From: Candidatus Fraserbacteria bacterium
Lineage (GTDB): Bacteria > Bipolaricaulota > Bipolaricaulia > RBG-16-55-9
Length of the DNA: 51,442 nt
Assembly (NCBI GenBank): GCA_037443265.1
Contig: JBBIOR010000002.1
Coordinates: 37,507-88,948 of the forward strand
Reading direction: 5' to 3'
The position numbers are program-made. Shown piece by piece: positions 48,001-51,442 of this stretch. The stretch's first letter is position 1. The number at the start of each line of letters is the position of its first letter.

Positions 48001-51000
48001 AGATTGACGGCCACGGTGCTCTTGCCCACCCCGCCCTTGCCGCTGAAGATCGCCATGGTTTCTTTCACGCCCGGAAGCTCAATGCGCCGAGCCGTGCCAG
48101 AGCCGGAAGGCACCGTCCGCGGTCGATCCACTTGGCTCGTGAACTCGACCTCCACTTCCGAGATGCCCTCGATGCGACTGACGCGCTCCTTCACCCATTG
48201 CACCAGCTGAGATTTCGAGGCATAAGCCGGCTTGAAGTGAAGCAAGACATGTGCCCGTCCGCCTGCTACAGCCACGCGCTCGAGCATCCCGGCTTCCATG
48301 AGATCCTTGTCGATCTTGGGAAGCAGAATCTGCTTAAGTTCCACGCGAATTCTCTCTTCTAGTTCTGAGTTCATTGGGCTAGGCCGCTCCTCTCTGGGGC
48401 CTTGATCTTGAAGGGCCGCGGAGGCCGGTCTACGCTCTTTAGCAGATCCGCGAGCGTCGTCGCCCCCAGAGCCTCTTCAAAGCGTTCGTTGATGAGCGCC
48501 CAGAAGCTGCTGGTGGGACAGCCCTCCTCGATCATGCATTTAAGCGTTGGATCCAGACAGGTGACCAAGGCCATAGGCCCTTCCAAGGCCTCTACGATCT
48601 CACGGACGGAGATCTGATCGGGAGGGCGTTCGAGCGAATATCCGCCGCCTCTCCCATGAGTGGCCGCAATCAGCCCGGCACTCTTGAGCTCCTGCATGAT
48701 CTTCTCCAAGAACGGATCCGGGATGCCTTGGGCTGCGGCGATCTCCCCAATCGAGATCGGAGCCCGGCCGTGGCTCTGAGCCAACTGCACCATCGCTCGC
48801 AGCCCATAATCGCTCTTGCGGGTGATCCTCATAGCCCGTGCTCTCCGCAGAACATCCATCCCATTGTAGGAAGAGCGCGGGGGATTGTCAACGAAGCGCT
48901 TTATCTTTCCAGTTGCTCTGAGGGAGTCTGAGTGGATTGGAGGCGGGCGATGAGTGTCTCGAGCATGCGCCAGAATTGAGGCTCTGAGACGCTCTCGCGC
49001 GCGTTGTCTAAGGCGATCTCCTTCGCTTTGCTGATCATCTCCGCGGCTTCGGTGGTGCGCCCTTGGAACTCCAAGGCCAAGCCCTTCATCATGAGCGGCA
49101 CATACTCGCTTCCCGGCCCGTGGCAGGCCTCGCAGGTGAGGTCCATCGTGCGCATGACTTCTACCATGGCCTCGATCTGCTTTGGCTCCGGAGCCTTTCC
49201 GGTGCGCCGAGCGCTCTTAATCAACTCCAGCAGCTCATCCCGCTGCTTCGGATCTTGAATCGTCTGCGCACTCAGCACTTCCGCCAAGAACGGGTGATTG
49301 ATGAGATAGAGTTCGGGTTGTTTGCTTGTCTTGAAGGCGTCCTGGAACCATTGAAGGGCGTGCTCTCTGTTGGAGGGCGGAATGTAGGCGGAGCCTCCCG
49401 GATTCGGATTGGCGTGGCATCCCAGGCAGGTGTTCGAGCCCAAAAACTCCAGCGGTTCGCCAATGGGAGAGACCGTGGTGAGCTGGGAGATGGCCTGAGC
49501 CTGCGGGTTGACAAACAAGAACGGAGATTCCCGCTCACCTAGTCCCTCAACTAAGAAGACGTCCTTGTGGAGCTCCCACCAAGCCTCGATGCTCTGGATG
49601 GCGGCTTCGCGCCTCTCGACGGGATCGTCAAAGACGAAGCCAAAGTCACTGCCGGTCATCCAGCGGATCATCTCGATGGCCCGCTGGCGAACCATCTGCT
49701 GAGCCGAGCGTAGTCTGGCCAAGCTCTCCAAGAAGATCTCGCGGTAGCGGCTCTGCATGCGCTCGTGGGCTCTTTCGGTGGTGAGGGCCAAAGGGTCTCC
49801 GCCGTGGCAGGCGGTGCAGCCCACTTGATCAAAGGGCATGTCTTTTAAGACAAAGACCCGATTGTGGATCTCGCCCAGATCCTTCAAGGGGTTCTGCTCG
49901 GAGCGGATGCCGCCTTGATTGACATGGCAGGCCATGCAAGCATCGGCGCTTCGGCCGGGCTCCGTGACGACTTTTGTGACATTAAGACTGAGCTGCCGCT
50001 CGATCTGGAGTCGATCCCACAGGGAGAGTGAGCCCTTCTTCTGGAGGGCGAGCTCCGTGTAATAGGCCCGCTGCCAGCGCCGCCACTCCTGATTGTAATC
50101 GTCTATGGCCACGGCGATGACCGCCAGAAAGAGCAAGACGCTCGCTATGGCAAAATATTTCCGGATCATGACACTCCCTGATTATGAAGAATCAAAGCTA
50201 GATGAGTCAAGATAGCCCATGATTTTCGCCCAAGCCATGATCGGGGTCATTCTAGACGCCGCGCGTACTCCCGCGCCCAACGATCGGCCGCCCAGATCTC
50301 CTCCAGACTGGGATCCTTCTGGGGTGTATGAGCCTCCAAAGCCCGTTCGAGAATGGCAGCCACCTGTGTGAGGGGCATCTCTCGTTGGAGAAAGCGCTCG
50401 ACGGCTACTTCGTCAGCGGCATTGGCCACCGCCGGGAACGTCCCGCCCTTACGGCCGGCTTCCACTACGAGCCGAAAGGCCGGATAACGCCTCTCATCCA
50501 GCTCATGAAAATCCAGCTTGAGCGCACTCAAGTCCAGCTCGCTCCATAAATGCCTGGGCCGCTCAGGATAGCTCAGGGCGTATTGAATGGGAATCCTCAT
50601 GTCTGGCACGCTCCAGTGTGTTAGCAGGCTTCCATCGCACAGCTCTACTATCCCATGCACGATGCTCTGCGGGTGAATCACCACATCGATCTGCTCAAAC
50701 GCAAGATCGAAGAGCCAGTGGGCCTCGATCACTTCCAAGGCCTTATTGACGAGGGTGGCCGAATCGACTGTGATTCTTTTGCCCATGCGCCAGGTGGGAT
50801 GGGCGAGCACATCCTCTGGAGTCACACGATGGAATTGCTCTAAGGGAAGGTCGCGGAGTGCCCCTCCCGAGGCCGTGAGCACCACCCGCGAGATCTCTGC
50901 CGGTGGGCTCTTCTCCAGAAGCTGAAAGAGGGCACTATGCTCGCTGTCTATAGGGATGAGCCTCGCTCCACTCTGCTTGAGGGCTCTTTTGATGAGATGG

Positions 51001-51442
51001 CCCCCGATCACGAGGGATTCTTTGTTAGCCAGCGCCACGTCTATGCCGGCTTCCAGAGCCGCCAGGGTGGGGAGGAGCCCCACAGCTCCTACAAGCCCGT
51101 TTAGCAGAAGATCCGGCTTGGATTCTGTGATCAAGGCCTGCAGCCCCTCCTCGCCCGCCAGAAGCTTGATCCCAGAAGCCTGAGGAAAGAGCTCCTCCTG
51201 AATCTTCTTCAAATCGCTCGGGCGCTTGATGCAGGCCCATTGGGGGTGGAACTCACGGATCTGTTGACTGAGGGCCGAAAGATTTTCGCCGGCGGCCAGC
51301 GCTACGACTTCAAAGCGCTGTTCCTGTTGATTGATGGCGCGAATGACTTCGAGGGCTTGTGCGCCGATCGAGCCCGTAGAGCCCAACAGACAGACTCGTT
51401 TTAGGGCCATTCACGAGGAGGCGGGGCTGGCGACCGACTGAG

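Follow-up and report, generated by a model that had tools for sequence, protein, structure and literature searches.

A long YjbQ subfamily as a candidate source of 1-deoxy-D-xylulose 5-phosphate in Bipolaricaulota, a phylum with an MEP pathway without DXP synthase

Where does a bacterium that possesses a DXP reductoisomerase (Dxr) without a DXP synthase (Dxs) obtain its DXP (1-deoxy-D-xylulose 5-phosphate)? The question is raised by a dxr gene (50247..51410, minus strand) near one end of the window, as we call the whole stretch of 51,442 nucleotides analysed here. It encodes a protein of 387 aa with a canonical active site, which matches TIGR00243 with 453 bits (cut-off 315.7). The window's genome (G000; 1.69 Mb, 88% complete) is placed in the Bipolaricaulota by named homologues (Fraserbacteria, Acetothermia). 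According to the survey's finding, dxr, ispD, ispE, ispF, ispG as well as ispH occur in this genome without dxs, and dxr without dxs holds throughout the phylum. Both statements are borne out by our searches.

The MEP genes of G000 other than dxr are scattered over the contigs C1, C6, C7 and C18. While ispG (C6:15762) was recognised by Pfam (E 7e-146), ispD (C7:35690), ispF (C1:113851) and ispH (C18:22298) were located by tblastn from Pfam-named genes of the single-contig genome G005, and ispE (C18:19840) by its GHMP motif only. All six post-Dxs genes are present in G000 and in G005, IspE again by motif only; the phylum-wide search was made for Dxr and IspG. Dxr was found in 176 of 184 phylum genomes (171 over the cut-off; 69 of 71 high-quality genomes), and IspG in 73 of 75 genomes, a set which comprises the phylum genomes that are at least 90% complete plus G000. 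Dxs on the other side exceeds the profile cut-off in none of the 184 genomes, about three times the number sampled earlier; the best match has an E value of 1.6e-67 and all matches are partial, with 10 of 14 controls over the cut-off. The N-terminal domain of Dxs (DXP_synthase_N) gave at best a partial match with E 3.2e-15 in the same 184 genomes, and such matches fell on split-transketolase halves where this was compared. In G000 the best match to the Dxs profile is a C-terminal half alone with 128.8 bits (cut-off 465.95), and NCBIfam assigns the Dxs-like halves of this genome to split transketolase and E1-beta, just as had been claimed before. Dxs is likewise absent from the single-contig genomes G005 and G006. 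A divergent or split Dxs was rejected on the Dxs-profile, DXP_synthase_N and NCBIfam results. The reported absence of HMG-CoA reductase was confirmed as well: in 184 genomes we found one fragment, at the edge of a contig in a genome that is 70% complete, and the mevalonate route was rejected accordingly. Judged by their gene content, the Bipolaricaulota have a normal MEP pathway from DXP onward, without Dxs.

An altered substrate site of Dxr was also considered and ruled out. With E. coli Dxr as reference, the residues of the NADPH, metal and substrate sites (K125, D150, E152, S186, H209, W212, M214, N227, K228, E231, H257, M276) are unchanged in all 44 phylum sequences aligned, and therefore the substrate should be DXP. 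Because Dxr is canonical, IspG near universal and the mevalonate route missing, the conclusion is supported that the phylum needs a DXP source other than Dxs. The earlier claim of one entry reaction for the entire phylum stands with respect to a source other than Dxs, whereas a single reaction for all members is not supported, as the candidate described below is missing from the window's order.

The neighbourhood of dxr offers little help in this respect. The 3' end of ftsH (51310..51442, minus strand; the rest lies beyond the window), identified via the sequence of its G005 orthologue and not by a family scan, overlaps the first ~100 nt of dxr in the gene call made in this analysis, and the pair is a conserved context, with an ftsH homologue at about 40 of 43 phylum dxr loci. 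Downstream of dxr lies a multiheme cytochrome-c-like ORF (48901..50169, minus strand) with weak c-type cytochrome matches below the cut-off, for which no homologue was found in G005. It is followed by genes for an Rrf2 regulator, an ApbC/Mrp protein and a SUF-associated protein (46939..48859, minus strand), assigned by NCBIfam and belonging to the assembly of Fe-S clusters. Clusters of the 4Fe-4S type are required by IspG and IspH; beside dxr these genes are context and no DXP source. In total, the 43 phylum loci hold ftsH, Fe-S and murJ genes in the neighbourhood of dxr and no enzyme candidate for a Dxs substitute, and a genome-wide scan for Dxr loci returned no loci of phylum members. The survey's finding that the dxr neighbours give no candidate is thus right for the dxr loci, but it does not extend to the neighbourhood of ispG and ispH, which gives one.

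In G005 the end of ispH is overlapped by a gene for a protein of the YjbQ/UPF0047 family, the last in the run ispA-hpnH-hpnG-ispG-shc-ispH-yjbQ. Membership in this family is borne out by matches over the cut-offs of PF01894 and TIGR00149 and by likeness to solved members, and the family is present in 73 of the 75 genomes. A long and a short type are cleanly split by the profile (E about 1e-51 to 1e-74 versus 1e-17 to 1e-33). The long type has ~155 aa and carries an insertion, HND-x(13)-N-x-H-x-H, between conserved histidines. Tallied by eye and among the matches listed, it is present in 50 of the 56 genomes that do not belong to the window's order and in one of the 19 that do, G000 and 18 of the 19 genomes of this order having the short type only. 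The short proteins form a separate clade in a quick tree of 143 columns, in which support for the relevant clades is weak (81-89), and their genes sit by fusA-like and tuf genes.

Thirteen wide ispG/ispH loci of the phylum could be compared, those of G097 and of genomes that do not belong to the window's order, and in eleven of them long yjbQ follows directly behind ispH. In G107 and G108 the cluster consists of just ispG-ispH-yjbQ, with hopanoid genes, shc, hpnH and ispA absent, while G117 and G120 have ispG-ispH without the long type, and the ispG genes of the window's own order stand alone. A BtpA-PfkB pair upstream of ispG in G107 and G108 was dismissed as a candidate, occurring in just one of five own-order genomes. 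The same ispA...ispH-yjbQ run is drawn in a figure for the cultured strain J31; the accessible text on this strain has no match for MEP or isoprenoid. In most of 52 further metagenome loci the long yjbQ lies by ispA, ispH or shc, and in 22 of the 52 a class II aldolase gene adjoins. Neither dxs nor dxr was found in 80 metagenome YjbQ loci.

Homologue searches and the Atlas gave no functional name for the long YjbQ. Its invariant residues are His, Asn, Glu and Asp, which would fit a metal site, metal binding being a property of the YjbQ family; cysteines are not invariant and a nucleotide-binding fold is absent. The AlphaFold model of the long type has the known fold of the family with a pLDDT of 84, the insertion being of low confidence (55-61).

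The distribution of the long type was then compared with that of Dxs in a second group, the class to which G185 belongs (identified as Dehalococcoidia from the title of locus L022), of which 301 genomes were searched with both profiles, the unpublished G399 being left out. Long YjbQ is encoded in 118 of 158 Dxs-less and in three of 142 Dxs-bearing genomes, and any YjbQ in 153 and 93 of them, respectively. The Fisher P of 1e-43 for this near exclusion overstates it, as the 300 genomes are kin and not independent, and were counted without a host tree; completeness figures are not given for this class. Both points speak against the candidate. From the 158 Dxs-less genomes 40 lack the long type (35 have the short type only, five have none), and Dxr is kept in five of five tested. 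Five Dxs-less genomes with long YjbQ, chosen without an isoprenoid neighbour, all have Dxr and none has squalene-hopene cyclase. Because shc is absent from these five, long YjbQ is not simply a hopanoid gene, and this explanation is ruled out. In the best 30 loci, isoprenoid genes or a class II aldolase gene are found within 1.5 kb in 16, and yjbQ stands alone in 14.

Further groups were inspected one genome at a time, with G187 excluded because it duplicates one of the genomes counted before. A related YjbQ subtype is encoded directly upstream of dxr in the Dxs-less G189, and behind a shc-dxr-hpnCDE run in the Dxs-less G190. Several YjbQ copies, some of them Binatia-like or long-like, are encoded in G192 and in G193, which lack Dxs as well. 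Among Dxs- and Dxr-bearing genomes, G186 and G191 are without YjbQ and G188 is without the long type. The acidobacterial G184, for which completeness is not given, has Dxr and neither Dxs nor YjbQ. In the photosynthesis cluster of Ca. Thiodictyon a yjbQ of a related subtype is found in the order idi-yjbQ-form IV RuBisCO-like gene.

On the strength of gene context and distribution, we consider the chances about evenly balanced that most of the phylum obtains its DXP through the long YjbQ subfamily, acting either by itself or as the central step in a short pathway. With slightly less assurance, we suggest that this subfamily of YjbQ/UPF0047 may be a thiamine-independent DXP-forming enzyme which replaces Dxs in most Bipolaricaulota, in about 40% of the Dehalococcoidia sampled, in Binatia and probably in other Dxs-less lineages. 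Within this explanation, about half of the weight we would place on a metal-dependent loss of the oxygen at C1 of ribulose- or xylulose-5-phosphate via a 1-deoxy-2,3-diulose; a thiol or a reductase would then reduce this intermediate, in analogy to the bypasses by mutant RibB and by methylsulfurylase. This route would start from universal substrates only, and it suits the 14 of 30 stand-alone genes, the absence of MtnA and RuBisCO-like proteins (RLP) and the slot next to RLP. The thiol-redox step is weakened by the cysteines it needs, which are not invariant, C108 being absent from the Binatia type. About a third of the weight would go to an alternative in which an aldolase joins DHAP and acetaldehyde to a 5-deoxy-pentulose 1-phosphate, whose carbonyl group then migrates; this chemistry agrees with the aldolase genes next to yjbQ, and both a class II FBP aldolase and DeoC are present in G005. 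The side activity of YjbQ binds thiazole phosphate, a weak hint toward DXP, from which the carbon skeleton of thiazole phosphate derives. Against the candidate stands E. coli, which has YjbQ yet needs dxs; the E. coli protein lies outside the clade of the long subfamily. Long YjbQ does not cover G000 or most of its order. These genomes would use the short YjbQ, or a pyruvate side activity either of split transketolase (H473A, family f1) or of E1.

The last possibility leads to the most prominent rival: slow growers might obtain enough DXP from pyruvate and GAP condensed in a side reaction of a housekeeping ThDP enzyme, be it transketolase (full-length or split), E1 or pyruvate:ferredoxin oxidoreductase. 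We regard this rival as improbable for the phylum at large, and as likeliest to hold in the window's own order. Transketolase is available in 74 of 75 genomes, in three forms, and wild-type split transketolases can use pyruvate with glycolaldehyde, as stated in passages of PMC13663882. The same passages name H100 as a marker that separates transketolase from Dxs. F or Y would replace it in Dxs-like enzymes, and changes of H473 are linked to pyruvate use. Of 59 N-halves 58 retain H100, with the second copy in G178 as the exception, and of 53 C-halves 48 retain H473; both argue against the rival, except that all five split enzymes of family f1, the window's family with G000 included, have Ala at the H473 position. 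The side activity of split transketolase considered in the survey cannot be the general answer, because the split form occurs in about 82 of 184 genomes and the others have a full-length enzyme with both donor-site histidines, but it stays alive for the window's family. At 15 of 40 loci the split transketolase has a transaldolase gene beside it, suggesting an ordinary pentose-phosphate duty. As to E1, G000 has genes for its alpha and beta subunits, and aceE mutants rescue dxs, although wild-type E. coli with transketolase and E1 cannot live without dxs (both from passages of PMC3424233). In G005, where 708 soluble proteins out of 1236 called genes were scanned with Pfam, the ThDP enzymes are one ordinary transketolase and several 2-oxoacid:ferredoxin oxidoreductases; E1, acetolactate synthase, phosphoketolase, RLP, MtnA, ThiG and PdxJ were not seen among the 708. 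Vitamin B6 is made in G005 by the DXP-independent PdxS/T route. Furthermore, a ThDP side reaction leaves the exclusion between Dxs and YjbQ unexplained. This exclusion would be mere shared ancestry if long YjbQ acted downstream in isoprenoid metabolism, as an IspH helper or as a prenyl-diphosphate or damage-control enzyme, with another gene as the DXP source. Such a role would agree with ispH as the tightest neighbour, often accompanied by shc and hpnCD, with a side activity of the family that uses a diphosphate ester (in the relevant passage of PMC3010111), and with the lack of the long type in the window's order and in the 40 Dxs-less Dehalococcoidia mentioned above. However, a helper should occur in Dxs-bearing MEP genomes as well, of which just three of 142 have it, and the long type persists without shc and adjoins dxr in another group, so that we hold this reading to be rather improbable.

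The known Dxs bypasses fail as general answers for the phylum. RibB could leak a 1-deoxy-diulose intermediate, which a reductase would turn into DXP; the enzyme is present in 75 of 75 genomes, and ribB G108S and D113G rescue dxs in E. coli (in a passage of PMC3424233). In the phylum, all 30 sequences compared carry the wild-type G108 and D113, and E. coli YajO has no match in G000 or G005. Retention of ribB is explained by riboflavin, because the gene always lies in the riboflavin operon (ribE-ribBA-ribH in 30 of 30 loci). The other reported suppressor sites presumably fall in a variable loop. We judge a leak of this kind very unlikely, and marginally more unlikely still that cells import deoxyxylulose or DXP from their neighbours or possess an undetected, highly divergent Dxs. 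Many members are small-genome community dwellers, and 528 genes of G005 (for membrane, secreted and P-loop proteins, small basic ones, those of extreme length in either direction, and a few already recognised) lie outside the Pfam scan; against this, the FGGY kinase of G005 is a glycerol kinase and not XylB, the Dxs N-domain is absent from 184 genomes, and a pure culture is reported. A pair of fructose-6-phosphate aldolase and xylulokinase was rejected as a source, as the G000 enzyme carries the Glu/Phe signature, which we take to mark transaldolase, and the G005 kinase is GlpK. Next to negligible is the MTA or 5'-deoxyadenosine shunt (MtnA, RLP and a cupin, or the variant with a dehydrogenase pair). 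Although G005 makes polyamines and G000 has MtnA, RLP is found in 0 of 184 phylum genomes and MtnA in 37 of 75, with G005 and G006 among those without it. A class II aldolase gene neighbours that of MtnA at 8 of 12 loci, which is the arrangement of the catabolic DHAP shunt, and motif and Cupin_2 searches found no zinc-dehydrogenase pair with a cupin in G005 or G000 (cupins were checked in five genomes). As a phylum-wide route the MTA shunt is refuted; it could hold for single genera.

The long YjbQ is our preferred candidate for the DXP source in most of the phylum. The gap itself has already been published, and what is new here is its phylum-wide scope. Passages of Marshall et al. 2023 (PMC10663253) report 181 of 4,400 species with an MEP pathway without Dxs, 172 of them without a known substitute and Ca. 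Bipolaricaulis anaerobius among the 181. The same gap appears in parts of a model of Rhodothermus marinus (bioRxiv 2021.05.17.444423), for Acidobacteria (PMC5462960) and in PMC12583986, while the ambiguous wording of a passage in PMC12892359 has Micrarchaeota acquiring most MEP genes "except dxs"; the searchable passages of PMC6107057 gave nothing on this point. No link between YjbQ and DXP and no phylum-wide loss of dxs in Bipolaricaulota was found among the literature matches listed, a coverage that ends before subscription journals and bioRxiv supplements. The source of DXP in such bacteria, with its 172 unexplained species, is stated as an open question in PMC10663253, and a candidate of 155 residues makes it testable by one complementation experiment. 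If true, the proposal would provide a second natural entry into the MEP pathway from pentose phosphates without loss of CO2, and the first physiological function for a family found in all three domains. It would also offer terpenoid engineering a way around Dxs, possibly free of pyruvate decarboxylation and feedback control, and bear on how isoprenoid synthesis began in a phylum that branches deeply.

Compared with known systems, the candidate shares with the YjbQ/UPF0047 family (PF01894, TIGR00149; PDB 1vph, 1vmh, 1vmj) the fold and the conserved H-T-T, H, N-x-H-x-H and E-x-D motifs. The native function of this family is unknown, apart from a weak thiamine-phosphate synthase side activity; no known function is given in the relevant parts of PMC3010111, PMC6556621 and a 2026 preprint, and repression of E. 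coli yjbQ raised pinene by 8% (in a passage of PMC6556621). The long subfamily differs from the family at large in the ~13-residue insertion, an ELD motif, its isoprenoid context and the near exclusion with Dxs. The MTA-isoprenoid shunt of Rhodospirillum rubrum, in which an RLP isomerase and a cupin methylsulfurylase act, likewise yields DXP without Dxs, and in Ca. Thiodictyon YjbQ adjoins RLP and idi where the cupin might be expected; in contrast to this shunt, RLP is absent from all 184 genomes of the phylum, MtnA occurs in about half of the 75 genomes searched for it, no such cupin was seen, and YjbQ is a different protein family. The E. coli suppressors of dxs (AceE mutants and RibB G108S/D113G, in passages of PMC3424233, and YajO) draw DXP from an E1 side activity or from ribulose-5-phosphate. 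They are laboratory mutations, whereas in the phylum RibB is wild-type, YajO was not found in two genomes and E1 was not seen in G005. Closest are the published Dxs-less MEP bacteria (in the passages of PMC10663253), which also have all MEP genes except dxs and lack the mevalonate route, the replacement being unknown for 172 of 181 species. In contrast to these, the present case comprises all 184 GTDB species of one phylum, names a candidate gene and tests its presence or absence in a further class.

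Studying the genes around yjbQ, which encodes a YjbQ/UPF0047 protein and is our candidate for the replacement of Dxs, reveals a hopanoid cluster of the order ispA-hpnH-hpnG-ispG-shc-ispH-yjbQ-hpnA in two single-contig Bipolaricaulota genomes without Dxs, G005 (L186:17151-L187:5305) and G006 (L480). A PF00494 search of both single-contig genomes found no squalene/phytoene synthase. Judged from their gene content, these two organisms thus possess a squalene-hopene cyclase while a known source of squalene appears to be absent. In relatives, hpnC/hpnD immediately follow yjbQ. The cluster of another genome of the phylum (L472, G058:C88) comprises hpnH, hpnG, hpnA and hpnCDE, and shc is missing from it.

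Other neighbourhoods of yjbQ were also found. In family f10 of the same phylum (G107, L473; G108, L474) a BtpA-PfkB kinase pair lies immediately upstream of ispG-ispH-yjbQ; G005 has this pair as well (L130:17430-19998), and it is not universal. Up to 22 metagenome loci (L427 and related ones) show the order ispA, nucleosidase-like gene, yjbQ, class II aldolase and nucleoside hydrolase, with no shc. In Ca. Thiodictyon pTs485, idi, yjbQ and a form IV RuBisCO-like gene are coupled behind pufLMC (L546:6397-8718), and a role of this photosynthesis-cluster protein in isoprenoid precursor supply is possible.

Within the window, the called ftsH end (51310-51442) has a predicted frame stopping about 100 nt inside dxr. 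A multiheme cytochrome-c-like gene (48901-50169), with homologues in 16 dxr loci of the phylum, lies between dxr and the Rrf2-ApbC-SUF genes. Two Dxr-bearing genomes with a long YjbQ and without Dxs, from the Dehalococcoidia test set (G197, L551; G276, L549), harbour additional weaker Dxr-like copies besides the main Dxr.

The genome of the window also encodes a transaldolase together with a divergent split transketolase (G000:C9:51222-53833; L001, L005), in which the H473 position (E. coli numbering) is Ala, as in all five family members. Second split-transketolase copies, unusual at such sites, occur in G178 (L316), with H26 replaced by Arg and H100 by Tyr, which is Dxs-like at H100, and in G097 (L308), with a different motif set. 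Finally, a run of deoC, mtnA, a class II aldolase and a nucleoside ABC transporter (G000:C20:24554-31741) has a layout resembling the DHAP shunt, which would serve the disposal of 5-deoxyribose or methylthioribose.
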